A DNA stretch of 32,000 bases from Candidatus Paracaedimonas acanthamoebae (GTDB lineage Bacteria; Pseudomonadota; Alphaproteobacteria; Caedimonadales; Caedimonadaceae): NCBI GenBank assembly GCA_000743035.1, contig CP008936.1, positions 1,140,001 through 1,172,000 on the forward strand. The letters are read 5' to 3'. Position numbers and translations under genes: made by a program. A model generated the notes under the pieces. It was not told the DNA's origin, did not search any database, and worked only from the letters and a program-made list of their open reading frames with translations. Positions 7,075 to 29,934 of the stretch are shown here, piece by piece. Each line of letters begins with the position of its first letter. Positions within the stretch are counted from its first letter, which is position 1.

Positions 7075-7080
7075 GTTTTT

Positions 7081-7365: not shown

Positions 7366-9567
7366 ATGAGATTTTTCACTCTCCCATCCTTCAACCTCTT
7401 TATAAAATGGAGGGTATGGCTTTTAATAGCTGCTGGCGTAGCTTGTGGAATAGCAACTTATTTTACATTCAGTAATGCCGGCCTGTTAGGGGTGAGTTCC
7501 CGTTCCATTGTTTTACTGTTAAATATGGATCTGGCAATTTTATTGCTGTTTGTGATTATAATTGCACGACGACTTGTCACATTATGGGGACATCGCCGTC
7601 AAAAACGCGCCGGTGCAAAACTTCATGCGCGATTAGCTCTCATATTTGGAGCTCTTACTGTTGCGCCTACTATATTTATTTCTATCACTTCAGGTTATCT
7701 TTTTAATGCTGGTATTGGATCATGGTTTAATGAACGAATTAGCACGGCACTTCAAGAATCTACAGCAGTTGCTGAGGCTTATTTAGAAGAGCACAAAAAA
7801 GTCATTAGAGCAAATTGCGAAGCAATGGCTCATACTTTAGCAGAAAATTTTCAACCTCTTTCAAATGATCAGATTCATTTTAATCAAGCACTTGATATAG
7901 AATTACAAGTACGCTCTCTAGATGAAGCCATTGTTTTTAACTCTTCAGAAGTTCTTGCCCGTTCCAGGTTAAGTTTTTCTCTTGAATTTGAACGTATTTC
8001 AGAACTTGATCTCGAAAGAGCCGAAAAATCTGTTGTCATTAATACTTCAGAAAGTGGCGACCGCGTCCGCGCTCTTATGAAGCTGCCTAGTTATAATGCC
8101 TACCTTCTTGTTGGAAGATTAGTTGATCCGCTTGTTTTAAAAAGAATTGCTAATGCTAAAGATGCTGTCAGCGAATATAACCAACTTCATGACATTCAAA
8201 AGCAATTAGAAATTAGGTTTGTGCTTGCTTTTATTTTGATTTCTCTGATTTTATTAGCAATTGCTATATGGGTGGGACTTAACTTTGCTAATCAGTTAGC
8301 TCATCCCATTATCGATCTCATTGAAGCTGCTGAAAAAGTGGCTTTAGGCAATCTTAATGTAACTGTCAAAGATGGCCGACAAGAGGACGAATTATCCATT
8401 CTCAGCCAGACTTTCAACCATATGACCTACCAGTTGAAAGCTCAACAACATGAGCTTATCGAAGCGAATCAGCAAATCGATCAAAGACGCCAATTTATTG
8501 AAGACGTATTAGCAGGAGTTAGTGCAGGTGTTATTGAACTTTCTTCTAAGGGAATCATCCGTTTGCTTAATCGTTCAGCACTTGAACTCCTCCGTCTAGG
8601 AGATCAAGAAATCCTTGGTCAAAAACTTGGAAAAATAGTTCCTGAGATGGCGGAAGTTCTCATGCAGGCGAGAGAAAGTAAAATTAACTTTTACCAAACT
8701 GAATTGAACTTAACACGAGAAGGTTTCACACGCGTTCTCTTAGTAAGGGTTGTTTATGAGAAAGGACAAAACTCCCAACAAGGAGTTATTGTCACATTTG
8801 ATGATATTACAGCCCTTGTTTTTGCTCAACGAAAAGCCGCATGGACTGATGTTGCCCGTCGCATAGCTCATGAAATTAAAAACCCACTTACACCTATTCA
8901 GCTCTCTGCTGAACGTCTGCGTCGGAAGTATCTTCCAGTACTTCAAGATGACTCACAAGCTTTTGAAACATGCATTGAAACTATCATTCGTCAAGTTGAT
9001 CATATCGGACGCATGGTCGCTGAGTTCTCTGATTTCGCTCGCATGCCAGCACCTCAAATAACACTTACTAATCTCATAGAATTGTGCAAACAAGCTATTT
9101 TCTTGCAACAATCTGCTCATCCAGAAATTGAGTTCGAATTTTCAACTGCTTACCAGCATATCGGCATCTATGCTGATTTATCTCAAATTGGCCAAGTTTT
9201 AACAAATTTGATCCAAAATGCTGTTGATTCAATTCTAAGCTGGCAGAGTGAAACTGAAGAAAAACCTTCCTTAGGTTGGATAGGATTCAAAATTGTCCTT
9301 GATAATACAAAATTGACTCTCTTGATTGAAGATAATGGAAAAGGTTTCCCTGAAAATCGCCCGTCTCTTACAGAACCTTATGTTACCTATCGTGAAAAAG
9401 GAACAGGTCTCGGACTTGCAATTGTAAAAAAAATTATTGAAGATCACGGTGGAGAAATTAACCTAGAGGATCGAAGTGTGAGAGGTGCTTGTGTGCGTAT
9501 TACCCTTCCAACTACAATTATAGAAAAGGTTGTTATGATGCCTTCTATCCCATTTAACATATCATAG
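7366..9567 (+). CDS. ntrY: sensor histidine kinase NtrY
   Basis: N-terminal TM segments, a second TM followed by a HAMP-like region (LAHPIIDLIEAAEKVALGNL), a PAS region, the H-box ARRIAHEIKNPLTPIQLSAERL, the N-box LTNLIQNAVDS and the G-boxes DNGKGF and GTGLGLAIVKKIIEDHGG. Located immediately upstream of ntrX. Confidence 0.9.
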   Translation: MRFFTLPSFNLFIKWRVWLLIAAGVACGIATYFTFSNAGLLGVSSRSIVLLLNMDLAILLLFVIIIARRLVTLWGHRRQKRAGAKLHARLALIFGALTVAPTIFISITSGYLFNAGIGSWFNERISTALQESTAVAEAYLEEHKKVIRANCEAMAHTLAENFQPLSNDQIHFNQALDIELQVRSLDEAIVFNSSEVLARSRLSFSLEFERISELDLERAEKSVVINTSESGDRVRALMKLPSYNAYLLVGRLVDPLVLKRIANAKDAVSEYNQLHDIQKQLEIRFVLAFILISLILLAIAIWVGLNFANQLAHPIIDLIEAAEKVALGNLNVTVKDGRQEDELSILSQTFNHMTYQLKAQQHELIEANQQIDQRRQFIEDVLAGVSAGVIELSSKGIIRLLNRSALELLRLGDQEILGQKLGKIVPEMAEVLMQARESKINFYQTELNLTREGFTRVLLVRVVYEKGQNSQQGVIVTFDDITALVFAQRKAAWTDVARRIAHEIKNPLTPIQLSAERLRRKYLPVLQDDSQAFETCIETIIRQVDHIGRMVAEFSDFARMPAPQITLTNLIELCKQAIFLQQSAHPEIEFEFSTAYQHIGIYADLSQIGQVLTNLIQNAVDSILSWQSETEEKPSLGWIGFKIVLDNTKLTLLIEDNGKGFPENRPSLTEPYVTYREKGTGLGLAIVKKIIEDHGGEINLEDRSVRGACVRITLPTTIIEKVVMMPSIPFNIS

Positions 9568-9577
9568 GAATTAGGTT

Positions 9578-10954
9578 ATGGCACATGACATACTTATTGT
9601 AGATGATGAGGCGGATATTGGACGCCTTATTGCAGAAATCCTTGAAGATGAGGGATACCAATGTCGCTATGCAATGGATGGTACCAAAGCCTTGGAAGCA
9701 ATTCGCATGAGGCGACCAAGTTTAGCCATTTTAGACATATGGTTAGGTGATAGCCGTTTTGATGGTATGAAACTTTTGGAGCTTATCAAAAAGGATCATA
9801 CAGATCTTCCAGTTATCATGATGAGCGGGCATGGTACAATTGAAACTGCCGTTACTGCGATCAAAAATGGTGCCTATGATTTTATTGAAAAGCCATTTAA
9901 AGCAAATCGTTTATTATTGGTTATCGAAAGAGCTATTGAAGCTGCAAAACTTAAACGAGAAAATAAGGAACTAAAATCTAAGGCCCCCATCCTTACTCAA
10001 TTGATTGGCACATCACCTTCAACAAATCATGTACGACAACAAATTGAACGTGTTGCCGCGACGAGTAGTCGCGTTTTAATTTCAGGCGCATCTGGGGTTG
10101 GCAAAGAAGTGGTTGCTCGCCTTATCCACAATAAATCGCGAAGAGAAAAAGGGCCTTTTATTGTGCTAAATTGCGCAACTTTAAGTCCAGAACGCTTCGA
10201 AGAAGAGCTTTTTGGACAAGAAGGGGAGCAGGGTATCAAGATTGGACTTTTAGAACAAGCCCATCAAGGGACATTATTTCTTGATGAAGTTTCAGATATG
10301 CCTTTAGAAACACAAGGTAAGATCGTTCGTTCTTTGCAAGAACAAACCTTTTTAAGAGTGGGGGGAACTAAAAAAGTGCAAGTTGATGTGCGCGTGTTAG
10401 CCTCTACAACTCAAGATATAAAACAAGAAGTTATCGAAGGAAAGTTTCGCGAAGATTTATATTATCGCCTTAATGTTGTGCCGCTTCGTGTTCCTTGCCT
10501 TAAAGAGCGACGAGATGATATTCCTCAATTGGTGGAAGAATTCATCAGACGTATCGCGTTTTCTCAAGGTTTGCCAGAGCGAATTTTTACCAAAGAAACT
10601 CTTCTTGTTTTGCAATCATATGATTGGCCCGGTAACATACGACAGCTTAAAAATGTTATTGAATGGATCCTTATTATGGCAACGGAAAAAGATGATAATT
10701 ATATCACTCCCAATTTCCTACCCGCAGAAATCTGCGGCGAGACCCCCTCTTTACTACGAAATGAGGAAAGTTCTAAAATTATGAGTCTTCCACTGCGTGA
10801 AGCAAGAGAACATTTCGAGAAAGATTATCTTTTAGCACAAGTCGCTCGCTTTTCAGGTAATATTTCACAAACTGCCAACTTTGTAGGAATGGAACGTTCA
10901 GCTTTGCATCGAAAATTAAAAACTCTCCAGATCGAGCGTAACAACCGTTCATAA
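9578..10954 (+). CDS. ntrX: response regulator NtrX (receiver + AAA+ + Fis-type HTH)
   Basis: Receiver domain (ILIVDDEADIG...LAILDIWL), Walker A GASGVGKE, Walker B GTLFLDEV and C-terminal HTH GNISQTANFVGMERSALHRKLK. The GAFTGA loop is absent (see findings). Confidence 0.9.
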   Translation: MAHDILIVDDEADIGRLIAEILEDEGYQCRYAMDGTKALEAIRMRRPSLAILDIWLGDSRFDGMKLLELIKKDHTDLPVIMMSGHGTIETAVTAIKNGAYDFIEKPFKANRLLLVIERAIEAAKLKRENKELKSKAPILTQLIGTSPSTNHVRQQIERVAATSSRVLISGASGVGKEVVARLIHNKSRREKGPFIVLNCATLSPERFEEELFGQEGEQGIKIGLLEQAHQGTLFLDEVSDMPLETQGKIVRSLQEQTFLRVGGTKKVQVDVRVLASTTQDIKQEVIEGKFREDLYYRLNVVPLRVPCLKERRDDIPQLVEEFIRRIAFSQGLPERIFTKETLLVLQSYDWPGNIRQLKNVIEWILIMATEKDDNYITPNFLPAEICGETPSLLRNEESSKIMSLPLREAREHFEKDYLLAQVARFSGNISQTANFVGMERSALHRKLKTLQIERNNRS

Positions 10955-10978
10955 ACTAAACTGACAAAAAGAGGCTTT

Positions 10979-12355
10979 ATGCGAGTTATTATTTGTGGTG
11001 CTGGTCAAGTCGGATTTAATTTAGCTCGTTACCTTTCCGAGCGTGATAATCATGTTACCGTGATTGATTCTTCAGCGGAACTTATTAATAAAATTAATGA
11101 CCGCTTAGATGTGAAAGCCATTTGTGGGTTTGCCTCACATCCGGAGATTTTAGAAAGTGCAGGAGCAGACTCAGCAGATATGCTTATTGCGGTTACTTAC
11201 TCGGATGAAGTCAATATGATCGCATGTGAAATTTCTCATGCTCTCTTTAAAGTCCCAACAAAAATTAGTCGCGTTCGCAGTCAGGCCTACCTTGATCCAA
11301 AATGGTCTCGACTTTTTAGTAAAGAACATCTTAGCATTGATGTAGTTATTTCACCTGAAGTTGAAGTGGCAAAATCCATCAGCCAAAGCTTAAGCATCTC
11401 TGGTGCTTTTGACTTAATTTCGTTAGCAAATGGTCGAGTCAATATTGTGGCCGTAAGATGCACACAAGATACACCTGTTATTAATACCCCTATTAGTCAT
11501 GTGACCAGCCTTTATCCGGATCTAGATCTTACTGTTATAGGGATTGTTCGTGAAGACTATAATTTCCTTCCCCAACCCCAAGATATTCTTCAAGTAGGGG
11601 ATGCTGTTTATTTTGCAGTTGCTCAAGAACAAATTCCCTTAGCAATGAATGCTTTTGGATTTGAGTACCAAGCAGCACATAGACTTCTCATCTTGGGAGG
11701 TGGCAACATTGGCTTAAGCTTAGCACAAGAAATAGAACAATCATACCCCGGCGTACATATAGAAATTATTGAGAAGAACCCCACAAGAGCTGAAGCTATC
11801 GCAAGCTCCTTAAAGAATACAATCGTGCTTTGTGGAGATGCTCTCGACAGTGAAATTCTTCAAGAAGCAAGCGTATCCACAACAGAAACTGTTGTTGCTT
11901 TGACCGAAGATGATCGTGTTAATACTCTTGCCTCTCTTCTTGCAAAACGTTTAGGAGCTATGCGTGCGCTTGCTCTGATTAATAATACTTCTCACGCTCC
12001 TCTTGTAACTTCCTTGGGAGTTGATGCCATAATCAGCCCACGCAAAGTTACCGTTTCTAAAATTCTCCAACATGTACGAAGAGGTCGAATTAGATCTGTT
12101 CATTCTTTAGGTGAAAATTTTGGCGAAATAATTGAGGCTGAAGCAGTTCAAGCCTCTAGCCTGATCGGTTCAACAGTTCAAGACCTAAATAGCGATAAAG
12201 AAATTATTGTTGCAGCAATTATTCGTAATGCTGAAGTGATTATTCCACTTCCTGCAACCATTATTCAGCTAGAAGATCGAATTATCATTATGGTAGCGAA
12301 TCGAGCAATTTCAAAGATTGAAAAATTATTCTCTGCGAGAATCGATTATTATTAG
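10979..12355 (+). CDS. trkA: Trk potassium-uptake system NAD-binding protein TrkA
   Basis: Two tandem RCK/KTN units with Rossmann glycine motifs (IICGAGQVGFNLA and LILGGGNIGLSLA). The length of 458 aa is typical for TrkA, and the position after ntrX is conserved. Confidence 0.93.
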   Translation: MRVIICGAGQVGFNLARYLSERDNHVTVIDSSAELINKINDRLDVKAICGFASHPEILESAGADSADMLIAVTYSDEVNMIACEISHALFKVPTKISRVRSQAYLDPKWSRLFSKEHLSIDVVISPEVEVAKSISQSLSISGAFDLISLANGRVNIVAVRCTQDTPVINTPISHVTSLYPDLDLTVIGIVREDYNFLPQPQDILQVGDAVYFAVAQEQIPLAMNAFGFEYQAAHRLLILGGGNIGLSLAQEIEQSYPGVHIEIIEKNPTRAEAIASSLKNTIVLCGDALDSEILQEASVSTTETVVALTEDDRVNTLASLLAKRLGAMRALALINNTSHAPLVTSLGVDAIISPRKVTVSKILQHVRRGRIRSVHSLGENFGEIIEAEAVQASSLIGSTVQDLNSDKEIIVAAIIRNAEVIIPLPATIIQLEDRIIIMVANRAISKIEKLFSARIDYY

Positions 12356-16101: not shown

Positions 16102-17208
16102 TTGAAACACACCTTAAAAGACCTTGTAATTTTGAAAGAAAATGAGGATCTTCTCAAAGTTTTAATTAAAACAATGCCAACAGCTGTTGCTATGCTTGAT
16201 GACCAACTACGATATATCATAACAAGTGATCGCTGGTTTAAGGAAACTAATTTATCCGAGAGCGACATAACAGGAAAATTGCATTACGAGGTCGTACCAG
16301 ACCTTCCTGAACGATGGAAAGAAATACACCAGCGTTGTTTAAAAGGCGAACATGTAAAATGTGATGAAGATGTTTTTATACGCTCAAATGGAAGCATCGA
16401 ATACCTAAGATGGGAGATTTTGCCTTGGTATAAATCCTCAAGCCTCATTGGTGGGATCATTATGTTTGTTGAACATATTACCGAACGTATAATCGTTGAG
16501 AAAAAGATGGAAAAAATGTTAACACAGCTAAAAAAATCAAATACTGAGCTGAAACAGTTTGCACATATGTGTGCACATGATCTGACTGAACCTCTCCGAA
16601 CAATTACAAATTATATTCATTTAGTGGAAGAGAAGGTTCAGAATAAAGACCTGCAAGATATTAACAACTATCTTAATATTATTCGAGACGGAGCTACTTA
16701 CATGCGTGCTCTTGTCCAAGGTATTTTGAATTACTCGCAAATGGGCCTCCATAAACCTAATAAATCATTATTTAATCTTGATAAAATAGTAAAAAATACT
16801 CAAATTACTCTTGCAAAAAGAATTAAAGAAAAAAATGCTGTTATTCATTGCCATGATTTACCAAAAATTTATGCAGATGTAACCCTGATCACTCAAGTCA
16901 TGCACAACCTTATCAGTAACGCGATAAAATTTAATTGTAGTGAAGCTCCAATTATCATGATCACCGCAGAAGAAAAAAAAGATACTTGGCTTATTAATAT
17001 TACCGATAATGGAATAGGTATTGATAAAAAATACCATGCAACCATCTTTAATATTTTTGTCAGGCTTCATAGCAAATCTCAATATCCAGGTTCTGGCATT
17101 GGATTGGCATCGTGCAAAAAAATTATAGAAGACCATGGTGGAGAGATCGGCCTTCAATCTAGCCCAAACAAAGGCTCTACTTTTTGGTTTACCTTACCAA
17201 ATAAATAG
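16102..17208 (+). CDS. cytoplasmic PAS-domain sensor histidine kinase
   Basis: PAS region (LIKTMPTAVAMLDDQLRYIITSDRW...), H-box FAHMCAHDLTEPLRTITNY, N-box MHNLISNAIKF, G1 ITDNGIGI, F-box IFNIFVRLH and G2 GSGIGLASCKKIIEDHGGEI. No TM segments are seen. TTG start; the exact start is uncertain. Confidence 0.85.
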   Translation: MKHTLKDLVILKENEDLLKVLIKTMPTAVAMLDDQLRYIITSDRWFKETNLSESDITGKLHYEVVPDLPERWKEIHQRCLKGEHVKCDEDVFIRSNGSIEYLRWEILPWYKSSSLIGGIIMFVEHITERIIVEKKMEKMLTQLKKSNTELKQFAHMCAHDLTEPLRTITNYIHLVEEKVQNKDLQDINNYLNIIRDGATYMRALVQGILNYSQMGLHKPNKSLFNLDKIVKNTQITLAKRIKEKNAVIHCHDLPKIYADVTLITQVMHNLISNAIKFNCSEAPIIMITAEEKKDTWLINITDNGIGIDKKYHATIFNIFVRLHSKSQYPGSGIGLASCKKIIEDHGGEIGLQSSPNKGSTFWFTLPNK

Positions 17209-17272: not shown

Positions 17273-20200
17273 TTAAAGATGACTTATTTTAATCCGGCGA
17301 ACCCAAGCCTGCCAATCTCGCGCGCCTAAATCTGATTCAAAAGATAATAACTCTTTCACAGTTTTCTCACAGATTGATATATCAGGCACAATGAGTTCTT
17401 GGTTCATGGATAAGACCAAACACTGAGTTTTACAGGCTTGTTGAAGATGGTAGGTATAAAATAGCGCCTCTTGGATTGTCTTCCCACAAGTTAAAGAACC
17501 ATGATTCCTCATGAGCAAGACATATTTATCTTGTAAATCATCGACAAGGGATTCTCCTTGGCTTCCATTAAGGGCTAACGAATTATAAGAATGATAGGTA
17601 ATCTGATTATAAAAATGCAAAGCCCATTGACTCAGCGGTTGCAAACCTTTTTTAAGCGCCGAAACAGCCACAATCTCAGGGGTATGGATATGAAAAATGG
17701 CATTAATATCAGGGCGCTTCTGATAGATAGCCCCATGAATAACATAGCCTGTTTTATTATATTGATACTCCGATCCTTCTAAAATTTCCCCATCAAAAGC
17801 AACCCGCAACAAACACTCAGGCGTTACTTCTTCAAAACAAAGACCAAACGGATAGATATAATATGCGCAACCATCTTCTGCACGTAAAGATAAGTGCGTA
17901 TAGGTATGGTCATCAAGCCCTAAGTAAGCAAGGATTTGATAGGCATAGGCGAGATCTCTTCTCAAAGTCATCTTCTGGTTCCTGCATTCTTCTCTACTTG
18001 CTTTGTAAGTATCATAAGCAATAAATAATTCTAAGGGAAAAAGGTACTCAAGTTGACCATCACGATAGAGTTCTGCGATTTCATTCGCACCTAACCCACC
18101 AAGTGTTCCTGCTACAATACTTCTGATCATCCCTTGAAGAGTGTCTTGAAGTCGAGCACCTCCAATTGTTGCATTTAATGCCCCTGAGACTCCCGCACGA
18201 ACCATATTGCTCTTCAAATGCTGCTGCCATCCTTCAGGTTGCTTGGGAAGATTAAACGTCCCACTTAGCTCATGCATCAACCCCGCACTGGCCATATTGA
18301 TGATGAACGATCTGGCAAACTCAGATGAGGTAAGAGCCTTCAGGTTCCCTGTCTGCACAAGAGACGAGGCCGCTTGGCTACTTATCGTCGAGAATCCTGC
18401 ATTGGTGACGGCAACACCCAACGAGGATAAACTCACTGCAGGCACCACGGTTGCTGTGCCGGTCGCTGCCACGGCTGGCACCATCCCAAACGCGGACTCC
18501 GCAAGCGCATTCATAAGCCCTGATGCCCACCCATAGGTTAAAAGACCTGCAGCGAGTCCCACCACCATCGCAAGGGCTTGATTCCCGCCTGGGCGATGGC
18601 CCACACAGAGATCATACAGCTCTTGACGAGGCGCCGGACGCGTAAGGTCAACATCTGGCGCTTCAGTGATCAACTCAGTTCGCACCTCAGGCCGATGACC
18701 TTGAATCTTCCCTTGCGCCTTCAACACAACCTTGCCAGGCATCGTGAGGGTGTTCGGGACCTGAATCTCTTGAGAGCCACCCCGCTCCCAAATCGCTCGC
18801 TTCTTATTATAAAGCTCTGTCTTTTGCGGCTGCATCACGCTGGCGTCTTCAACCGTCAGATCTCTCTTCGCCTCAATCAGAGCAGACCCCTTCTTCCCCT
18901 CCATCTCAACCCCCACCAGATGAATATCCTGATGAGAGAAAAGATGGATTGGCCCTTGCGAGAGGACCTTTGGCCGCACAACCCTATAACTTGGCCGCAT
19001 CCCTTCCTTGCGCATCCCGCGGCAACTCGTCGAATCCTCCATTAATGACCTCGTGATCAAAGGCGAAAGGTGCATCTTCTTTTGAGTCTCTGGCGACCAG
19101 CCTCCTTCCCCAACGATAAGGGTGACGCCTTGAGCAAACAAGGACTGAAGCTCTCTGACTTTCTCATACCCGGCAAAGATCTCTTGGATCTCTTTGGGAT
19201 CCTTCAAAACCCTGCCATATTTATAAAGGCCACTCACCTCCTCTGGAAGCGCTTCTGATAGGGTCACTGTCTGCTTCTTGATCTCCTTCTTCCTCTTCAC
19301 ACGACCCCAAACATTCTTCCGCTTCCACATCTTCTTCATCTCATGCGTCTCGGACCATGTGTGGTGCTGACGTTGAATCGCAAGATGCCCAACATCCTCA
19401 ATCAGCAGCTCTGTGTGAAGGGTTCCTGTCGTCAATAAGTCTTCAATATCTAACCACAAGATTTTTGACTTCATCTCACCAAGATCAATGTTGGCTTGCT
19501 CGGCATGAAGATCGAACTGATCCACCCATAAATCCCCCCCAGGTTGGGAAACATACTGAAACTTTTTAGGAAGCTTTGGCGCCTCTTTCTCCTTTTTCTT
19601 AAAAAACCCTATCAGCTTTGTCGAGGCTCCTTCTCTTATGAAAGGCTTGGGCGTTTGCTCGACACAATCCACCTGCTTTGTCACCTTCAAGGTCCCTGTC
19701 GTCAGAGTTCCTTTCTTGGCGATCAGGCGAGAGCGATCAAAATGCGTATGAGACCCTTTCTTCCCCAACAGATAGGCTTCCTTCTCTATGATTTGCGCGA
19801 GGTGATCACGGACATGAGGATCATGATAGGAAGGCGGCGTAATCAAATAAGAGCGCAAGGCTTGCCGATCATACTGCCCTTCAGGAAGGCTAAAAAGGAT
19901 CGGCTCATTCAGCTTCAGCGCCATCTCTTTCGGCAATGAGGATTGAAGGCCTTGGAATAAATGGGGGCCCCGCTCAATCAACGCTTGAGAAGGCGTATTC
20001 GCGGGCAAACCCAAAAGCTTCGGATTGTCAAGAAAAGGCTTAAGGTAAGGGAACAGATCCGCTCCATTTTGAATCACCTTGCGATGCAAAGAAAGGTAAT
20101 CTGGACATTCAGGTGTCAATGGCACATAGCCGATATTCTGCTGAAACGCCTCAATAAGAGCCTGTCCCTCAGCAAAGAAAGGAAGAACAAACGGAAGCTT

Positions 20201-23200
20201 CTCTGATCCTTTCGGCCCTAAAATCAGCCGTTTGCTTTTTTGAAGCTCTTCTTCCAAAGGATACTTAATGGGAACAAGCGGGATAAATAATGTCGACCCC
20301 TTCCCTGTCGAATCCAGCTTCACAAGGCTGGAAGACGCTCCCAAAGATAAAGGCATGACGGGCTGATAAGGAATGGCACGGCCAGACCGGCCAACCGTCT
20401 GCACCGTGAGCCCTTTTTCAAAAATAATGAGGAGCTTCGAGCCAATCATCTTTCCTTGAACTAAGGCTTCCTTTGCTCCAGTAAAGGCAATTCCCTGGCT
20501 TCCTTCCAGCTGAGGAAGGATTGAATAAAACCCATCCCTTTCAATCTCAATGGGCGAATCCCACGTAAAATAATCATCAATCGTTTTCTTTTTAGGACGT
20601 TTCGGGAACGCCTTATTCCACCGTTCATTTTGGAGAAGTTTTAGAATGTTTTTATTTTCCCATCCTCGGCGGGTTAAATCGGAGCATCTGGCCGGATGTA
20701 AAATCTCATAAGGCGTCTTATCAAGATGATAAATAATTCCTGACTTAAAGTGAAACACCGCCTCTATTTGATCAATAAATTCTTTCCCAACAATAGCTCC
20801 AGAGGCTAAAATAGATCCTCCATAGTTCCTTCCTTTCTGAATATCAAACCTTATATGGCCATTCACCTTGAAGCTCGGCGCTCTTCCTTGAGCAAGGCAA
20901 TAATCAATCCAATAAGGCGGAGAAAGACCTTCACCCACGCGCTGAACAGCTGGAATGAAATGATTAAAGAGAGCCCCCCTTATCGTCGCATTGCCCTTCC
21001 AAACCGCCACTGACGTCCCTGAAAAAGAACTCTCTTGATGGGCCACAACTTCCAAATGCTCATCCGCAACCACAATATTCCCGCCATGGCCATGGAAGGT
21101 TTGAGCCTCAAGCCTCATCCCCTCATTCGAGACAAATTGACTTTTATTGGGAATATACACGTCATAAGGCGCCTTAATGGCTGGCCCAATCGCATTCCCG
21201 CGGGATGTCTCATAGAATACCTTCCTTTTAATCCATCGCCCTAACGTAATGTCTTGCTCTGCCTTGATGTGAAAGAAATGATTGGAGAACACAATCCCTC
21301 GAACAAGGTCAAACGTTTTAGCATCGGTCGCTTCAAAAGAACCCCCACTCTGAATCTTGATCAAGGGAAGAGAAGGCTCTCCAACCCAAATAGCATGCCC
21401 TGAGGCTTTCAGCTGAAGCCCTTTGCCTGATGACAGATTTGCGTGTAGTTTTAAAGTTTGCGCGGTCTTGTGAGGGAGAACTTCAATCTTTATCCCCCCT
21501 TCCACCTCAAGAGGACGCCATAGCTTTCCTCCTTCCCGAAAAATCAGCTTTAAAAGGCCTAAGGTTCTTAAAGAATGGAGACCATAGTTGGCCACTCTCT
21601 CAGGGCACTTGGCCTTAATCTCAATTCCTTCTCGCCCTTCAACAAACGCCCCTCGAAAGTCATGGTAATGTCCCTCGATCTTAAGAACTTTTGCCGCTCT
21701 CACCTCTCCTGTATCTCGTTGCGAGAAGTTCCCCTTTAAAACAATGTTCCCTTGATCGCTGATCATCTTCCCATAGTTATACAGATTCCACAGATCCTCA
21801 TTATAAGAAGACGTTAAAATCTCAATTCCTTTTCTGGCTTCAAGGGTGGTCTTGTTCGTGAGCCCAGGACTTTCAACCCGTAGCTGTCCAAGCAATTTAA
21901 GAGGAATCTCTAATTTTTGGCAAGGCGGCAAGATAAGATGAAGCAACCCTGGGGTTTGCAGACCCTCTGTTTGATAAGAAAGGCCTTTTGCTGTCTTCAA
22001 TAAGACTTTCTGAGTGCCCTCAACAACATCCTTTAAGATAATATCCCCCTTCGTCGAGGTGATCTGAACGTGATCTGCCTGGATCTTTTTTTCAGCCACG
22101 ACGGAAGGCGCTTGGATAAAAAGTTCACCCCTCGTCTGTAGGGGGGGCGTTAACGTGAAGGCCTCTTGAAGAATAAACGAAAGCTTCGGCGTGTTCCCTT
22201 TGATCTCTTTCACCTTAAAAGGTTGTGTCACTGTAATAGAAGGACCTTCCAGGGTTAACTGTGTCTCTGGACTCTCAAGGGGCTGATTCAGTTGCTTATT
22301 GCCATCAAAGGCAAAGGTTACTAAAGGACATCCCTTAAAAACTGTGGGCAAATATTTAAGACCCCACTTATGCAACGTATGTACCTTCAAATGCTCTTTT
22401 ACCGTCATGGGGCCCTGCAAATAATTTAAATGCCCTTTAAAAGAAGCCTGCTGAGAGGTATAAATCTCCCCTTCTGGATAATGGGTGGTATTGCCCTCAA
22501 CATAAAGAGGACCTTCTTCACTCATCAGCTTTCCACGATTCACCACCCCAAACCCTTCTTCAACAAGAGGCGTCAAAAAGGTAAAGCCTTGTTTTGCGCG
22601 TAAGGAGGAAAAATTATAGGCTTGAGGGCCTTTAAAAAGAAAATGACCTAAAAGAGAAAGAGGAGATTTAAAATAAAGCCGAGATGGAGTGCTGATAATC
22701 TCTAAAGTCCCCTCTGTCTGCAGGCCTGAGGTTTGTGGCGTGATATTCGGGCCGCCGTCTTTGTAAGAAAGCCCCCCTCCGACTCGCAACGTGAGACCTT
22801 CAATACCCACAGCCCTTTCCTTCAACGTGATCTGACCCGGACTCTCAACTTGCAAGGTGTTATGGGCAAATACCTCTTTCTCTGAGCTCACCGATTGGCC
22901 CACAATCGAGATATCTTGCTTGCCGATAACGGTTCCTTTCAGCACAACAGGCCCTGAGGCTGATATTTTAAGGTCCCCCTCAACTTGAAGATCTTGCGTT
23001 GAGGTAAAAGCTGAAGAAGCAATCTCAACCTTTCCCCAAGCCTTGAGGGAAGTGGATAAAGCAGTCCCTGTAAACTTTAAGAAAGGTGTGTGAGCTTCCG
23101 TGATGGTCGCCTCTAAATGCTGTCCGATCTCTAACGACGGTCCTTCTAAGGAAAGAGGTCCTAACGTTTTAATGTCTTGTGTGAAGGTTGCAGGCTCTTG

Positions 23201-24580
23201 AAACACAAGCTTTAAGGCTTTCTCGGTCTTCAACTTTTGAGGATCATAGGTAAATCCTTGCTTGCTCTTGATCGTAAAAGCTGATTGAGGGTAAAGGTCC
23301 CCTTGCACCACATGCGTCTCACCTTCCATCTCAACGCCTTGATAGGCCCAAAGAAGTCCTTTTGTATGCTGAACATTCCCTTGAAGAATCACTTTCCCCT
23401 CTTCCGAGTGTAAAACGGCTTCATTGAGAATGGAGGGTGCTTTAAAGTGAACTGTTCCTTTGCCACTCATCCCCCCAAGGTTCTTTATAAGAGCAGCTTC
23501 GGCGGTTAAAGAACCTTTAAGGATAAGAGGATCTGAGAAAGTTAAAGGAGAGGTTGTTGAGATCAGCTCAAGCTTCTTAAATTCCGTCAAGCCCTTAAAA
23601 TCACATCCTTCAAAGTTTATGGCTTCAAGGTGGAGATGATCCCCCTGCAAATGAGGAAAAGTGCTGAGACCTTGGTGGGTCTTCACGTGAATCTTGTGAG
23701 CCTCAACCAAAGAAGAGGGATGCGAGATCATCTCCTTCCCTTCATAGGCAAACTGGCCTTCTTTCATCCTGAGCTGAGACTGGGAAGTCCGATGATCAAG
23801 GACCCGGCCATTTCTAAAGGTAAGACGCTTAACCCCTTTAATCTGATGATCATTCATCAGGTTATTCCCATGTAAATCAGCCGTCCCATCTTCTTTAAAT
23901 TTTAAAGTCCCTTGGTTTAAAAACGTCCCTTCATGAAGGTGGAGCTCTTGCACATTGAGGGTGCTGCTCCCCTCAATCTTAAAATCTCCATGTACAGCTA
24001 AAGTCTCAACATCAATCCCCTGTAACTCTTTCTGCAAATCTAAAGAAGCCATCGCCCGACTCACAACCCTTGGCGCACACGTCACAAGGCCTTTCACTTG
24101 AATCCCATCCTCAATAATAATGGCGCCCTCATTCTCGAGCCCAACTGTGGAGTTCTTCTGTCCTAAACCATCAAGCAATAATTTAATGTAAAGAGTGTTG
24201 TTGTCTTCCCCTTTAGGGCTTTTCAGGACCTGAATAGACTTCAAAAGAGCAGGATGGACAAACTGATAAACCTTCCCTTTCCAGCGATAAAAAGTTTGAA
24301 GCTGATCTTGGCTTTCTCGAAAGACCCAATCACAGTCCTTAAACTCTTCTCGTAATTTAGCACTCTCTTTTGAAAGGCTTATCGTAGAATGGGGAAAAGG
24401 TTTAGAAACATACGACCCTCCTTGCAAGCGAGCTTCTTGGAGGTCTGCTTGAATCGCTCCCAACCCCTCATGCGCCCACACAACACCTAAAAATATCTGC
24501 TGATAAATCAAAATATAGGTCAGAAAGATGCGACCCACATCACGCAATAATCCCAAAATCTTTGGCACACAAAATCTCAT
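17273..24580 (-). CDS. giant (2,435 aa) FhaB/CdiA-like beta-helical protein with a DUF637-like pretoxin region and a C-terminal class II aldolase/adducin-head domain
   Basis: Uninterrupted 7.3-kb ORF with GGGAGG 4 nt before the ATG and a hydrophobic N-terminus ([19 protein letters not shown]). The body is repetitive and G/L/K/T-rich. An FhaB-like block [21 protein letters not shown]...[13 protein letters not shown] lies at about nt 20,000-20,190. The Ala/Gly/Ser-rich DUF637-like segment spans nt 18,041-18,577 and ends in [17 protein letters not shown]. The last 232 aa (nt 17,276-17,971) match class II aldolase/adducin ([57 protein letters not shown]). Confidence 0.85.
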
Positions 24581-24940
24581 GCAACCTCCCTTTGCAACCT
24601 CAAAACCTCTCTGTCCCCTGCCTGTTCTCTCTTTTTATTATTATTTTACGTCTCTAAGCAGAGATCCCCTCAATCGCCCTTCCTCCAAACCTTCAATCAT
24701 CAATAAATAGACGACCAAGCTCTTTTAATCTATTACCCAACCAAAATGTCTCTTTCAAACTTTTTTATTCCTTTGGGACAATTTAGTCTCAACTCGCTCC
24801 CTCAAGATAAACAAACTAAAAATAGGAGAAAAGACCTCATAAAATCTAAAACTGGCTCTTTCGCTTTTCTCCCCTTTTCCGTATAAGCTCTTAGAATAAG
24901 CTATATGTACGCCGTGGTTTTTTCTCCCTCATTACACACC

Positions 24941-25735
24941 TTTCCCGCACGATGAGGACTCTTCTCTGGCACCTATTCACACCTTCTGGTTGCTTGAGAT
25001 CCCCGGCACAAGGCCGGGGATGACCGTATGGGTGATAGCCCTGAAGCTCATCAGTTTTCATTCCTTTGCTGTCAACCATTTTTTCTTCCTTTCTTTATTC
25101 ATTTTCATCTCTGCTCAGTCCTCACTAATGAGATCCAAGTTCTTCCATCTTCGTCATCCTAGGCCTTGTGCCTAGGATCTCAAGCGACCGTAAGATCTCA
25201 CCTACCACTACTCGATGTCTTCGGCCTTTCCTGGATCCCCGCCTCCGCGGGGATGACAATAGGAGTGTGCAGGAATGATACAAAAAAGTGTTTGTTGCCA
25301 TCCGTGCCTTTACTTTGCCTCTCCTCTTCCAGATCGTGCCTGTGACACACAAGTACGCCTCTCGGGTACCTTTACCACCTTCAGGCTGCCTGAGATCCCC
25401 GCCTCCACGGGGATGACCGTGTGGTCGATATGTTTCAAGTTCATCAGTTTTAATTCTTTTGTTTTCAATCATTTTTTCTTCCTTCCTTTAAGTTGTTTTA
25501 ATTTTCACTCAGACCTTACCTGTGAGTCCCAAGTTCCTTTGTATTTGTCATCCTCGGCCTTGTCCCGAGAATCTCAAGTAACCGATAGGTCTCACTCATC
25601 ACCTTTCGATGCCTTTCAGTCTTTCTGGATCCCCGCCTCCACGGGGATGACCCTTATAAATTTCAAACGTTGTCATTCTTGAACTTGTCCCGAGAATCTC
25701 AAGCGACCTGAAGATCTCTCCTGTCACCAACTTTT
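24941..25735. repeat. hairpin-repeat array 1 (modules X1-Y1-X2-Y2-partial Y3)
   Basis: Two ~400-bp units, each with three parts. The first is an ~85-nt X module ending in CTGAGATCC[stem-loop-stem]GGATGAC. The second is a ~128-nt T/C-rich spacer. The third is a Y module: GTCATCC[stem-loop-stem]GGATCTCAAG, then ~55 nt, then CTGGATCCCCGCCTCC(A/G)CGGGGATGAC. Hairpins lie at 25002-25020, 25161-25179, 25237-25253, 25398-25413, 25553-25569 and 25631-25646. Confidence 0.9.
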
Positions 25736-25770
25736 ACCTTTCCGCCATCAAATGCCCATTTCTTTCCTCT

Positions 25771-26007
25771 TTTCATCAGGCAAAGAGAGAGCCTTCGCTC
25801 AAAAAGAGCGTTAAAAGGTTTATTTCTTTAATAAATTGAGTTTGTGCTCCCTTTATTATTATTTTTATTGAGATGGATATAGAGACTTTAAGAAGAGGAC
25901 TTATCAAGGTTTATTTAACCTCAATAAGGGGAAGAGATTCGTCTCTAACCATCTACAACCAGACTATCATATCATGATACAAAAATCAAGAAAATTCAGC
26001 ACAAATA
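25771..26007 (+). repeat. conserved array tail, copy 1 (paralogue of 30859..31077)
   Basis: Starts TTTTCATCAGGCAAAGAG.G.G.C.TT.GCTCAAAAAGAGCGTT and ends TCTCT(A/G)ACCATCTAC...CATATCATGATACAAAAATCAAGAAAATTC. Both blocks are nearly identical in the two copies. The middle is diverged but alignable. Confidence 0.8.
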
Positions 26008-26212
26008 TCAAAAAATAAATACTTAATATCCATAGCTTATAAAATAATTATTTGGGTCCATAGTGACCTCTTATTCTTGATCACTTCATCATCCAAGCTT
26101 GGTGGTATCTTACTTACAGTGGTGAGCTTGTCCATTCTTCCACCATCGATAAAGGTTTTTTGATAGACAAAAAATTAAAAGTTTTCGCCTATCAAAAGCT
26201 GTGTTTGAACCC

Positions 26213-26246
26213 CCTATAAAAAAAGGTTAAGCAATTGCTTAACCTT
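26213..26246 (-). terminator. rho-independent terminator (perfect 26-nt palindrome) downstream of the 26424..26903 gene
   Basis: The palindrome is AAAGGTTAAGCAATTGCTTAACCTTT. On the minus strand it is followed by TTTTTTTAT. On the plus strand the U tract is weaker, so it is mainly a minus-strand terminator. Confidence 0.65.
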
Positions 26247-26423
26247 TTTAACATTCTTCTTTTCCACCTTAGCGTAACAATTACTCTATTTCTTCAACTT
26301 TTATTAAAGAGGTTGAAAAGGTGTTTGAAATTTTTACAGAATATAACGTAAAATCAACGATCAACATTTCAGGTACAAAGAATTGATATTGACCATAATA
26401 CCAACCATTCCCAGGTATTGAAT

Positions 26424-26903
26424 TCAACATAGACGTGGGCTTTGATTCGTACATTGATATCCCTTGAAACCCTGTAAGCCCGGTGCTTGAAAATACTTTA
26501 AAATTTCTGACGCACTCTTAATCGCAAAATCATGAGGCTTAAAAGTCTCTTCTCTCCATCCAATAGGAACTGCGGCAAGTTGATAATATTGACCAGCATC
26601 AACATCTTCATAAACTGTGAATTTTGCAAAAGGTAAAGTATAATTTTGGCGCATTTTCTGCGCAAAATCTTTGACTGCCTCTTCTGTCTTTATTTTACTG
26701 AAATCGTCTGCATATCGCTTCGCTTGCTTAAATATTGGTGAATCTAAAAAAATACGAGGATATTCTTCTACGCGACAAAGATTCTCCAAGACTTTATGTA
26801 TCGAACCCCCCTTGAGATCTGTTTCAATCAAACTCGCCTCACTGAGGTTAGAGAAAAGTAAACTTCCCAAAGCAATCTTTAAAAGCAAAAACTTCTTCAT
26901 CAT
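26424..26903 (-). CDS. secreted hypothetical protein (159 aa from MMKKF)
   Basis: The track ORF extends to 26987, but the internal start gives a classic signal peptide, MMKKFLLLKIALGSLLFSNLSEA|S. No recognisable domain. Confidence 0.6.
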   Translation of the reverse strand: MMKKFLLLKIALGSLLFSNLSEASLIETDLKGGSIHKVLENLCRVEEYPRIFLDSPIFKQAKRYADDFSKIKTEEAVKDFAQKMRQNYTLPFAKFTVYEDVDAGQYYQLAAVPIGWREETFKPHDFAIKSASEILKYFQAPGLQGFKGYQCTNQSPRLC

Positions 26904-27014
26904 ATGATTCCTCTTAGTTATTGTGCTTATTAGTAATATAAGAGTTTGCTTGCGCTTTATAAGCGTCATTCTAAAAAATAAGTCCAATATCTTCTTTGCT
27001 CCTTGGTGTGGCCC

Positions 27015-27386
27015 TTACCCCCGCACCAACTGCTGGAATTCGAGCACAGCTTCTCGGGTAATGGCATCGTCTTTAAGGGCTATGTCCTGGCGAACAAATC
27101 GGAACAATCCTAAGCTATTAGGTTCAAGAAGCACCTTATAACCCTCCAATTTCTCCTTCAAAAACGCCACAATTCGATCCATCTCCTGGGGACCTTTATA
27201 AGTGCTGACAGCCTTAAGTGTAAACGTGATCGTCCCTTTGTCTACCTCAGGAAAAGACCATGCTTGGCCAGTTTCTTCATAAATCACATAAGGTGGCTTA
27301 GCATCGGGAGGCACAAAGCCATATAAAGAGACTTCCCCTTTCAAAAGAGCTTCAATGGCGGGAAAAATGGAAACTATGGTCATCAT
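27015..27386 (-). CDS. DUF3168-type phage/GTA tail-completion protein (RcGTA g8-like)
   Basis: Its size (123 aa) and its position directly after the head-tail adaptor, with an ATGA overlap, fit the family. The sequence style LYGFVPPDAKPPYVIYEE...TFTLKAVS resembles the DUF3168 proteins that follow the adaptor gene in alphaproteobacterial GTA clusters. Confidence 0.6.
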   Translation of the reverse strand: MMTIVSIFPAIEALLKGEVSLYGFVPPDAKPPYVIYEETGQAWSFPEVDKGTITFTLKAVSTYKGPQEMDRIVAFLKEKLEGYKVLLEPNSLGLFRFVRQDIALKDDAITREAVLEFQQLVRG

Positions 27387-27750
27387 CCGCCTCTTTCATG
27401 ATCTTTTAGAGCCACCCCACAAAACTGTTGCCATCCCCTATTGGGAAGATATTCTGCATCTTCAAGAATCGCATAAGACGTGCGCGTTCCTTTAAGACGC
27501 ATCCCAGCCTTAATGGAGATATCTCGGCGGGCTGAAAACACATAGATAGGCTGTCCAAGATATCTTGCGCCTAAACATGGCCACATGTCACATGACCCAC
27601 ACGCCGTCGCACAGGATGCAACATCTCGCGCTTTACCCATAGGCGTCCAACATCTTGCCAGTCTTCTTCAACCCCACCTTCATGATCCGGCAAAAGATGG
27701 CTTTGTTGCACAAGAATGAGCTCTTGCAAGCTGTTTAAGGATGACTTCAT
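27383..27750 (-). pseudogene. phage head-tail adaptor / head-closure protein (RcGTA g7-like), frame-broken
   Basis: N-terminal part, by hand translation from ATG 27750: MKSSLNSLQELILVQQSHLLPDHEGGVEEDWQDVGRLWVKRE..., which stops at 27571-27573. The C-terminal part is in another frame (track ORF 27383..27640: ...IYVFSARRDISIKAGMRLKGTRTSYAILEDAEYLPNRGWQQF...). Together they resemble one ~120-aa adaptor protein. Confidence 0.6.
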
Positions 27751-27773
27751 GATTGATCTACCTTTTCAGATGA

Positions 27774-28394
27774 TTATCCTAATCGTTGAACGCGATAAGG
27801 TAGAATCAATTGAATAGCAGCTGGACTTAAAGAGGGGGGCACGCCTCGATTATCATTGCTGGACACGCGATTCTCAAAAAGCTCTGCCACCATCATCAAG
27901 ATTCCATGCTGAATTGACTCAGGAATATCATTATGATTCAGGCCATAGCCTGCTTTAAAATCAATTTGAATCATGCTGTTTTTGCTGGCTTCGAGGCTTA
28001 ATGTCTTCCCGAAATAAAGCTTTGCAACACGTCCTGCGGTATCAAGACGATAATCTTTCAGCTCACATTGCCGATAGGAATCAATAAGCTTTGGACAACT
28101 CAAGAGTTCGACAAAGGGTGAGCGTGGCAGTTCGATGCCTTGCTCATGCTGACGATGATTACCTGTTAGAAAACCATTATCACTTTTAGCAATACAGAAG
28201 CCTGCATTCACAGTAAAACGCCAAGTTTGATAAATGAGCGAGCGGGCTGTGAATGCTTCAACGGCCATTCGTGCTGTTTTAATAAGATGCTTTAAAAGCT
28301 CATCTTCTTCAGAACTTTCAATCCTTAAAAAGGCTTTCACATCCGCCAAAGTAACGGGCTCTTTTCCTGGATGTTGTAATAATGTTAGACTCAT
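27774..28394 (-). CDS. phage gp6-like head-tail connector protein (RcGTA g6-like)
   Basis: The N-terminus (TLADVKAFLRIESSEEDELLKHLIKTARMAVEAFTARSLIYQTW) is the typical head-tail connector motif. The length of 206 aa and the position directly after the capsid gene also fit. Confidence 0.75.
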   Translation of the reverse strand: MSLTLLQHPGKEPVTLADVKAFLRIESSEEDELLKHLIKTARMAVEAFTARSLIYQTWRFTVNAGFCIAKSDNGFLTGNHRQHEQGIELPRSPFVELLSCPKLIDSYRQCELKDYRLDTAGRVAKLYFGKTLSLEASKNSMIQIDFKAGYGLNHNDIPESIQHGILMMVAELFENRVSSNDNRGVPPSLSPAAIQLILPYRVQRLG

Positions 28395-28520
28395 TTTTTT
28401 TATTTTCCTTTAAAGGTTATCTTAACGATAAGACTATTAAAAAATTATTACGTGCTTGAGGAATGATCCCTAAAACTTCATTTTTTGTAAAAGTTTAAAG
28501 GAGTTCCCTCTCATCCTTTT

Positions 28521-29639
28521 TTAAGCCGCGAATGAAATTACTTTAATCGCTTCAAAATTGATCACATCACCCCCCACTCGCTTTGTGGTATAAAATTCCA
28601 CATACGGTTTTGAGCTAAACGGATCCCGCATAATGCGCATGCCCGCGCGATCAACAATTTGATAGCCTTCTTTAAAGTTCCCAAAAACGATGGATTTAGA
28701 TGCCGTTCCAGCCACTAAAGCCGGCATGTCTTCAGCCAAGACAACGGGATAACCAAGCAACGTTGGACTGATCTCATCAGCTAAACCTGGCTGCCATAGA
28801 TATTGGTGATTTTGATCTTTGAGTTTGCGGACCATGGCATGAGCGGAGCGTGACATCAACCACACAGCCCCTTTTTGGTACTCAGGCTTTAAAGCATTCA
28901 TGGTCTCAATTAAGATATCCGCCGCATTTTCATCTCAGAAAGCCCCATCCTTCCCTGTCTTAATATGTTCAAGCTTACCCCACTCCCATTGAGCGCGATC
29001 TTTCGTTTCATAGCTTAAAAAGCCTTTAGGCTTATTATCACCATCCCCATGGATAAAGGCATGATTTTCCACCTGAGCGAGTTTTGTGGCAATCCGACCC
29101 GCAAGCCATGACTCAACATCAACCCGCGCATCATCCAACAGTTTCTGGGTTGCGCGCGGCTTTGCATAGAGTTCATGCACGGGAATGCGCAACTTCATCA
29201 AATTTGGCGTCTTTGTTTCTTTCCGCTCTGCTGTCTCAGTCACCCACCCCACTTCAGCGCCTTCTTTATCCAACAAGAGCTCAATCGCACTTGCTGAAAT
29301 TGTCATGACGGATGAGATGGCACGAATCGGCGATAAATCCTGTAAATTTCGTCCAATGCGATCTGCAACCACTTGAGGAATAAGATAGCCCCCATCACCC
29401 TCAACCCCAGCGGTTAAGCTTTTTGTCTCCGCGCATTCCAGCTGTTTTGATTCTCCTTGCCGAACATAGTTGAGTAATGCTTTCTTTTGTTCCGTTTCTC
29501 CGTAAGAAAGTGAACCACTCGTCTCAAACGCCGGTCGTTTGGAAGCCACCTCAAGATGACGGAATCGTTCTTCTTGGCTCGCTTTAAATTCGCCAAAGGC
29601 GTGTGTTAATGTATCAATTGCTTCATTGACTGTATTCAT
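28521..29639 (-). pseudogene. HK97-family major capsid protein (RcGTA g5-like) interrupted by a single in-frame TGA
   Basis: Track ORFs 28935..29639 and 28521..28901 are in the same frame, separated only by TGA at 28937-28935 (...GKDGAF*DENAADILIETMNALKPEYQKGAVWLMSRS...). Capsid motifs present: DGGYLIPQ, SPIRAIS, GWVTETAERKETKTP, PVHELYAKPRATQKLLDDARVDVESWL, ENHAFIHGDGDNKPKGFL, LWQPGL, GYPVVLAEDMP and FYTTKRVGGDVINFEAIK. Confidence 0.8.
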
Positions 29640-29934
29640 TTTTAGTCTTCCTGTTTTTTCGTTTTTTTAATTTTAGTGTGCTGTTAGGCACGTTTTTTGT
29701 TTTATGGTTTCATTAAAACCTTTTGTTTTTTTGTTTTTTGGTATGAGGTCAACCGTTAAGCCTTTTCCTCAAGTGTTATGCTCTACGTTCTTTATGACAT
29801 TTCTGCCTCCCTTTGTTTTTTATCGTTAGTCATTGTTCATCTACTTCGCTGTATCTTCTTTTCTCATTTCTGCCCCGTCCCTCTCCCGCGCGGTTAGGGA
29901 TCTTTTGACACCTTTCGATACTCACCTTTTCCAC

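Follow-up and report, generated by a model that had tools for sequence, protein, structure and literature searches.

Does a reading frame that stays open over 7,308 nt in the genome of an obligate amoeba symbiont attest to an intact gene under selection? The question is raised by the longest open reading frame (ORF) in a 32,000-nucleotide stretch of the chromosome of Candidatus Paracaedimonas acanthamoebae (contig CP008936.1, positions 1,140,001 to 1,172,000; hereafter, the window). A first-pass annotation, made from the sequence alone, described this ORF as an intact giant gene related to FhaB and CdiA, the passengers of two-partner secretion (TPS), and took the open frame as a sign of ongoing selection. 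Here, we describe a comparative analysis of this ORF, which indicates that it is probably a CdiA-like toxin gene whose tip and immunity gene were deleted and which became fused, in frame, to a housekeeping aldolase gene. The evidence consists of domain content, identities to other proteins, the position of the junction, synteny with related loci, and a step in nucleotide composition. The ORF and the features that surround the junction are the following:

17273–24580, minus strand: the chimeric ORF, 2,435 amino acids (aa), 7,308 nt, ATG start, joining a truncated polymorphic-toxin gene, an aldolase leader, and an aldolase gene in one frame
24585–24590, minus strand: GGGAGG Shine-Dalgarno-like site, 4 nt 5' of the ATG of the giant ORF, read directly
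18041–18043, minus strand: junction codon L2180 (CTT), where toxin homology (GQLEYL) ends and aldolase-leader homology begins
17972–18040, minus strand: native 5' leader of the aldolase gene, read through as aa 2181–2203 and kept in four related loci whatever precedes it
17273–17971, minus strand: gene of the class II aldolase/adducin family, 232 aa plus stop, identical to IM40_06005
16102–17208, plus strand: convergent PAS-HisKA-HATPase histidine kinase gene, at the same position in all related loci

The ORF itself stands: a frame of this length being open by chance is excluded, and its extent and the GGGAGG ribosome-binding site reported before were borne out, with an ATG start on the minus strand. 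The 2,435-aa product has no database record, and no chromosomal giant protein was found among the 5.8 billion proteins searched, whereas two other proteins of the same assembly that are discussed below, P0001 and P0005, do have records; this absence suggests that the depositors did not call the giant ORF as a protein. Look-ups by exact protein sequence matched neither the giant ORF nor P0001.

The first-pass annotation overlooked a complete class II aldolase in the last 232 aa. Residues 2204–2435 have a record of their own in the same organism: P0005 (IM40_06005), annotated by itself as a 232-aa protein on a 1.72-Mb contig, shows 100% identity to them. Aldolase_II (PF00596) matches at aa 2209–2387 with an E-value of 1e-42; the score is 146.6 bits (cut-off 22.2), and the match spans profile positions 2–183 of 183. 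PRK06661 (NCBIfam) matches at aa 2203–2432 with 386.9 bits (cut-off 339), spanning positions 3–233 of 235. Judged by this coverage, the aldolase part is a full-length member of the class II aldolase/adducin family. Its homologues number in the hundreds, stand alone, measure 229–260 aa, and come from Rickettsiales and Holosporales. Examples are the stand-alone class II aldolases (PRK06661) of Rickettsia prowazekii and Wolbachia; in the window gene, by contrast, no stop separates the enzyme from the toxin remnant upstream.

Four related Holosporales lineages, recovered via their aldolases, carry a stand-alone aldolase gene at the same syntenic site, and three of the four have no toxin gene there. 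In all related loci, the aldolase (229–238 aa) is followed by the same convergent PAS histidine kinase, which the first-pass annotation had correctly named as the downstream neighbor, and in most of them BON, 8xMP, Host_attach, trkA, ntrX, and ntrY come next, as in the window. What precedes the aldolase differs: head-tail genes resembling those of gene transfer agents (GTAs) and then two unrelated ORFs in L011 (aldolase 84% identical), a gp17-like gene directly before the aldolase in L010 (81%), and unrelated genes in L013 (86%), all without a toxin gene. In the closest relative, a Holosporales metagenome-assembled genome (L002/L003/L004, 89%), a separate toxin-remnant ORF lies upstream of the aldolase; it retains a full DUF637 domain, the motif AIDHNF, and about 35 further residues, and ends in a stop 35 nt before the aldolase ATG. 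The segment of about 9 kb between 18043 and 27015 is thus an insertion relative to the toxin-less relatives.

The toxin/aldolase junction can be placed to the codon. L2180 is both the last codon shared with the toxin and the first triplet of the leader homology, and colinear DNA identity of 87% with L002 starts exactly at window position 18043 and extends across both the aldolase and kinase genes. In a five-way DNA alignment of the window and the four related loci, the leader TTAGAATTATTTAT..TGATA.TTAC.AAG precedes every aldolase. In the window, AGGA lies 8 nt 5' of the aldolase ATG (17971). A triplet of the aldolase frame that reads AAA in the window and in the three toxin-less loci is TAA in L002. 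The overall GC content of the giant ORF, given earlier as about 50%, was measured at 44.5–55%, against 29–44% in the surroundings. At third codon positions, GC content (GC3) is 0.44–0.585 in the toxin part (0.47–0.585 over aa 1500–2178), 0.32 in the leader, 0.345 in the aldolase, and 0.26–0.36 in core genes, and this step coincides exactly with the junction.

The conserved leader also bears on how the aldolase is expressed. The genes upstream of the aldolase in L013 are on the opposite strand, so that the aldolase must own a promoter in toxin-less loci such as this one, and because the leader is retained in the window, independent expression is likely there too. A consensus scan for promoters gave no match in the leader or in the DNA upstream of the giant ORF, so that the leader ranks as a possible promoter only. 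Judging from the conserved leader and the AGGA site, the aldolase is most likely still made separately as a 232-aa cytoplasmic enzyme.

The part of the ORF that precedes the leader, aa 1–2180 (hereafter, the toxin part), has the following features:

24473–24580, minus strand: signal-peptide-like N-terminus (aa 1–36), with a basic n-region, hydrophobic residues at aa 18–33, and the putative boundary VWA/HEG
22481–24472, minus strand: aa 37–700, a family-specific N-terminal module (aa ~37–190, lower confidence) and then a predicted right-handed beta-helix, without a detected TPS domain
20063–20179, minus strand: FFAEGQ... block (aa 1468–1506), kept within the toxin family
19001–24574, minus strand: tract (aa 3–1860) 100% identical in protein to the plasmid-encoded P0001 in a global alignment
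18074–18403, minus strand: DUF637 pretoxin domain (PF04830), aa 2060–2169, profile positions 3–131 of 168, with no VENN-like motif after it

The hydrophobic, signal- or anchor-like N-terminus reported before was recovered as the sole strongly hydrophobic stretch of the giant ORF, aa 18–36, which ends at VWA/HEG; cleavage there and dependence on Sec are predicted from the sequence. AlphaFold2 predicts a right-handed beta-helix from about aa 190, with a mean predicted local distance difference test score (pLDDT) of 78.9 over aa 1–700 and values above 90 across much of aa 370–670. The assignment of the toxin part to a CdiA-like polymorphic-toxin family is supported, by the DUF637 pretoxin region together with this predicted beta-helix.

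Other elements of the earlier description fared less well. The Ala/Gly/Ser-rich region that had been called DUF637-like does match DUF637 above the cut-off (32 bits against 26.6, Pfam), but the domain is truncated; the right edge given for that region, 18,041, is the exact point where the sequence character changes. The hemagglutinin-like, repetitive body did not hold up: Fil_haemagg_2 reaches 12.6 bits against a Pfam cut-off of 22, so that filamentous-hemagglutinin repeats (PF05594/PF13332) were not found in the toxin part, hemagglutinin models of NCBIfam give no match at E≤1 for the giant ORF, a BLASTP comparison of the protein with itself detects no internal repeat at E≤1e-3, and the Gly content is 9–10%. 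The FFAEGQ block, read as the counterpart of the conserved GDGFYEQ block of FhaB/CdiA, is present, but the equivalence found no support: no Pfam model matches at the block, and alignment of the toxin family with one true TpsA by hhalign paired the shaft only, with a probability of 33%. Profile searches against the sequences of the PDB gave chance-level matches only. The placement of the protein with FhaB and CdiA can thus be kept in the form of a CdiA-like polymorphic toxin without a TPS domain, and is to be dropped with respect to hemagglutinin repeats and intactness.

The closest database relative of aa 1–2200 is P0001 (IM40_11330), a hypothetical protein of 2,406 aa encoded on a plasmid of Candidatus Paracaedimonas acanthamoebae; searches of PLSDB by megablast and tblastn gave no match for the plasmid DNA. 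The tract of identity with P0001 is sharply bounded, with residue 2 differing and identity falling past aa 1860. From there to residue 2006 the two proteins are about 90% identical; from aa 2006 onward they form a mosaic up to GQLEYL (aa 2175–2180), and beyond that they are unrelated. P0001 continues with DUF637 (profile positions 2–166 of 168), the boundary motif AIRNN, and an Ntox28 toxin domain. The giant ORF lacks both a VENN-like motif and a C-terminal toxin domain, its C-terminus being the housekeeping aldolase. Judged from the protein alignment, the near-identity to P0001 indicates a recent origin of the window copy, and because of this recent origin the long open frame is uninformative on selection: a copy 100% identical to its plasmid paralogue over aa 3–1860 is too young for decay to have become visible, and the inference of ongoing selection fails together with that of an intact gene, DUF637 being cut internally and fused to the housekeeping aldolase gene.

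A conserved delivery region with variable tips was found in the family, as is seen first in the identity to P0001 through aa 1860 and the divergence after it. P0002/L006, P0003, P0129, and P0135 likewise share the body of the toxin part and have different tips. The relatives are genuine polymorphic toxins: their tips are of the LHH, EC869-like, or Ntox28 type, their immunity genes are of the SUKH type, and the VENN-like boundary reads AIRNN, AIENN, or AIDHN in them. In L006/L015, a split gene (1,213 + 1,270 aa) that encodes DUF637 and an LHH nuclease precedes a SUKH immunity gene. P0003/L005 and L016 combine DUF637 with a tip without an assigned family, after which come a SUKH gene, an ORF of 357–369 aa, and a second SUKH gene. 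P0129 carries DUF637 and a CDI_toxin_EC869_like tip, and P0135 DUF637 and a sub-threshold match to Ntox28 (16.7 bits against a cut-off of 25). A scan of the genome collection matched only a contig of Caedibacter sp. 37-49, and a metagenome scan added one locus, L016. In the relatives, SUKH/SMI1_KNR4 genes come directly after the toxin; in the window, no immunity gene comes right after the giant ORF, and the next gene is the convergent histidine kinase. The immunity gene had indeed been noted as absent, but this is no sign of a different kind of system: it would be missing because the deletion removed the toxin tip and what followed it.

The history that we propose for the locus, in which the order of events, the independent expression of the aldolase, and the loss of toxin function are all inferred, would begin with the insertion of a foreign polymorphic-toxin gene between the GTA-like cluster and the aldolase, before the window organism and the L002 lineage diverged. 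The foreign segment, of about 9 kb, would have carried the giant CdiA-like toxin gene, which after insertion would have lost its tip and immunity gene, and its 5' 5.6 kb would recently have become the same as that of the plasmid paralogue IM40_11330, through homogenization or through copying in either direction. A deletion in the window lineage would have removed the terminal quarter of DUF637 together with the VENN-like motif, the toxin domain, and an immunity gene, if one was present, and would have left codon 2180 attached to the DNA 72 nt 5' of the aldolase ATG. By chance this join is in frame, and the leader is free of stops in that frame, such that a gene finder reads a single 2,435-aa ORF. 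The upstream 2,180-aa part would then be a disarmed remnant of a toxin gene on its way to becoming a pseudogene, which could serve at most as a recombination reservoir for the plasmid copy.

Several observations weigh against this account. The ribosome-binding site and the start of the giant ORF are intact, and if the giant gene were transcribed and translated, a fusion protein would result. A simple scan for the sigma-70 consensus reported no promoter in the conserved aldolase leader. The recent date of the window copy is read from protein identity only. Finally, a toxin remnant persists at this site in the closest relative as well, so that some role, as an adhesin or a recombination donor, may have been retained.

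The same points can be turned into the case for a tip-less filament that still functions: the 2,180-aa signal and beta-helix part would be exported as an adhesin or surface fiber, as FhaB is in Bordetella, with the aldolase tail incidental or removed. Such a filament would account for the intact start codon, ribosome-binding site, and signal-like N-terminus, for a beta-helix predicted with high confidence, and for the retention of a remnant at the same site in the closest relative. Yet the intactness is accounted for by an identity of 100% with the plasmid copy; an aldolase domain at the C-terminus, folded and dependent on a metal, would be expected to hinder the export of an unfolded, type V-like passenger; and the relative's copy has a group II intron and a different end, so that no common truncated form has been kept. 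We consider a functional filament unlikely. Less probable by a wide measure is a neofunctionalized effector, in which the aldolase/adducin-like domain would be new cargo in place of a nuclease tip. Polymorphic toxins do swap C-terminal domains, and here a complete aldolase domain is fused in frame; in this family, however, tip swaps occur after the VENN-like motif, whereas the present junction interrupts DUF637 and precedes the leader that belongs to the aldolase. Moreover, the domain is an unchanged, syntenic housekeeping orthologue (100% identical to IM40_06005 and 81–89% to the stand-alone genes at the same site), and no second DUF637-Aldolase_II fusion was found among the 120 best of 842 aldolase matches. 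An assembly artefact, in which the 5.6 kb identical to the plasmid gene would have caused a mis-join and the continuous chromosomal ORF would not be real, has an equally slim chance. An exact protein-level repeat of 5.6 kb between replicons does exceed short-read length, and related metagenome contigs do break inside the toxin gene; nevertheless, the window copy departs from the plasmid copy at each of its ends (at residue 2 and throughout the sequence past aa 1860), both flanks are chromosomal and syntenic with relatives, and the decisive junction at 18043 is outside the repeat. The break in the related contigs is an observation in its own right: the 3' end of a group II intron lies inside the relative's toxin gene, just before DUF637 (L002 1–148, also L003), with an Rfam Intron_gpII match of 63 bits at L002:72–148 that is preceded by an HNH-like maturase C-terminus, and it is there that the metagenome contigs end.

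Seen as a deletion fusion, the giant ORF is mostly an ordinary case of gene decay, and carries a lesson for annotation, namely, that a recent deletion that fuses two genes can produce a very long open frame. It is best annotated as two units, a toxin pseudogene and an aldolase gene, rather than as a 2,435-aa "hemagglutinin." The locus is also of interest as a record of polymorphic-toxin gene turnover in an obligate amoeba symbiont, the steps being insertion beside core genes, homogenization of the chromosomal and plasmid copies, the disappearance of both tip and immunity gene, and, in one relative, the entry of a group II intron.

A separate question, which concerns the toxin family as a whole, is how these proteins are exported. 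The first-pass proposal of a route other than classical TPS may hold for the family, but has no bearing on the disarmed window copy. The first-pass annotation saw neither a TPS domain nor the motifs NPNL and NPNGI, and both observations were confirmed: the TPS domain (PF05860/TIGR01901) has no match in the giant ORF at E≤1 in Pfam or NCBIfam, and the NPN motif is absent. A profile of the first 700 aa, searched against 1.84 billion representative proteins, retrieved no more than 15 proteins at E≤1e-3. A single one of these, P0138 (E=8e-5), bears a TPS domain, and it was matched in the shaft (aa 686–1135), not in that domain; hhalign gave this match a probability of 33%. The family amounts to about 15 representative clusters in that collection. 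In a third protein database, the N-terminal profile matched at least two proteins. Foldseek searches with AlphaFold2 models of aa 1–700 and aa 37–335 returned nothing at E≤1e-3; the TPS structures 3fy3, 2odl, and 4rm6 appeared only at E-values of 0.5–2.3 and template-modeling (TM) scores of at most 0.28, and type V passengers, like TPS domains, were matched only at the level of a generic beta-helix. The absence of a flanking Omp85-type transporter gene, also noted earlier, was corroborated in that no Omp85, ShlB, or POTRA gene turned up in a scan of the window that covered ORFs of 100 aa or longer and a few below that length. A TpsB-like gene is likewise lacking in the flanks of L005, L006–L009, and L016, as far as their contigs reach and to a maximum of 10 kb. 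A TPS domain and an adjoining TpsB remained undetected in every family member and locus inspected.

The relatives keep the N-terminal motif LTY(I/V/L)LIYQQ(I/V)FLG.VWA, which also heads the otherwise unrelated beta-helix proteins P0004, P0134, and P0136, large proteins of Caedibacter and Paracaedimonas relatives. The conservation of this motif is unusual for a plain signal peptide and recalls the conserved signal-peptide extensions of type V proteins; by analogy, its occurrence in P0004, P0134, and P0136 hints at a common export route. The combination of a Sec signal with a beta-helix passenger suggests, by inference, an Omp85-type helper of the outer membrane that would be encoded elsewhere, and BamA/TamA or another outer-membrane pathway are possible candidate routes. 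On this basis, we tentatively entertain the idea, which we regard as doubtful, that this Holosporales family represents CdiA-like delivery in which the lineage-specific signal LTYxLIYQQxFLGxVWA and a new N-terminal module of about 150 aa replace the TPS domain, with export proceeding without a dedicated TpsB. If this were true, the same signal on P0004, P0134, and P0136 would mark a shared, undescribed export route in amoeba endosymbionts, and the window copy would still be a disarmed remnant. The lack of a TPS domain and of an adjoining TpsB in this very small Holosporales family is the one point of moderate novelty, and the family offers a compact test case for CdiA-like export without a TPS domain and CdiB. 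A role as cargo of a type VI secretion system (T6SS) was considered and set aside. Directly after petABC, L016 has a DUF4280 (PAAR-like) gene at 6956–7312 (Pfam), and L015 has a 117-aa ORF at 24485–24838 that appears, by eye only, to be its counterpart; the PAAR-like gene is thus 3–7 kb from two family loci, but it follows petABC and lies on opposite sides of the toxin, so that linkage is unsupported.

Compared with known systems, the toxin part resembles the CdiA/FhaB TpsA proteins (type Vb) in giant size, N-terminal signal, predicted right-handed beta-helix shaft, and DUF637 region, and its relatives further resemble CdiA in the VENN-like AI(E/D/R)(N/H)N boundary, the variable nuclease-type tips, including CDI_toxin_EC869_like, and the downstream immunity gene. 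Unlike in TpsA/CdiA, a TPS domain was undetected by Pfam, NCBIfam, an exhaustive profile search, and a fold search, Fil_haemagg repeats are sub-threshold, and no TpsB/CdiB adjoins any locus inspected; the window copy, in addition, is unlike CdiA in having no VENN motif, tip, or immunity gene. Hemagglutinin-like toxins with CRCT tips have been described in Rickettsia and other intracellular bacteria as part of CRCT/CRCA modules (PMC9111745). In Rickettsiales, CdiB is scarce, both remnants and orphan modules are common, and the question of how such toxins are secreted without TPS and CdiB has already been raised (PMC9111745). A Paracaedibacter-like endosymbiont of Bodo saltans encodes polymorphic toxin systems with uncharacterized N-terminal regions, for which a link to T6SS was suggested, and its toxins were reported to lack homology to known proteins or to each other (PMC8163844). 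The family described here is like the Rickettsia and Bodo-symbiont systems in comprising large modular toxins with immunity genes in endosymbionts, and differs from them in its N-terminal module and in the housekeeping-gene fusion, neither of which is described in those two papers. Neither toxins nor hemagglutinins are mentioned in the genome paper in which plasmids of these amoeba symbionts were first described (PMC5751055). The kind of system is thus already known, whereas we did not find the N-terminal architecture or the aldolase fusion described in the papers that we read.

The remainder of the inserted segment and its left limit comprise two further features:

24581–27014, no strand assigned: non-syntenic DNA upstream of the giant ORF, without a counterpart in toxin-less relatives, containing repeat units and a 187-aa ORF
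27015–29657, minus strand: GTA-like head-tail cluster; synteny with the toxin-less L011 stops at 27015, the left limit of the insertion

Between 24980 and 25730 lie three or so repeat units of about 394 nt with palindromic elements of 42–44 nt (GTCATCC..GGCCTTGTGCC..GGATCTCAAGCGACC), which may belong to a genome-wide family of palindromic repeats or of elements resembling miniature inverted-repeat transposable elements (MITEs); Rfam gives no match in 24.4–27.1 kb. The 187-aa ORF (26424–26987, minus strand) looks secreted, with a signal-peptide-like start, and has no Pfam match. L011 also has a 187-aa ORF at the same position, with no detectable similarity to that in the window. Within the head-tail cluster, the phage/GTA-type major capsid gene is split into two minus-strand ORFs, 28935–29639 and 28521–28901, which match profile positions 1–131 and 155–280, respectively; its counterpart in L011 is one ORF of at least 380 aa that is cut by the contig start. 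The cluster looks like a decaying GTA-like remnant. On the other side of the aldolase, the ntrY-ntrX-trkA arrangement at 7366–12355, which is typical of Alphaproteobacteria, is kept in all related loci and served as a synteny anchor.

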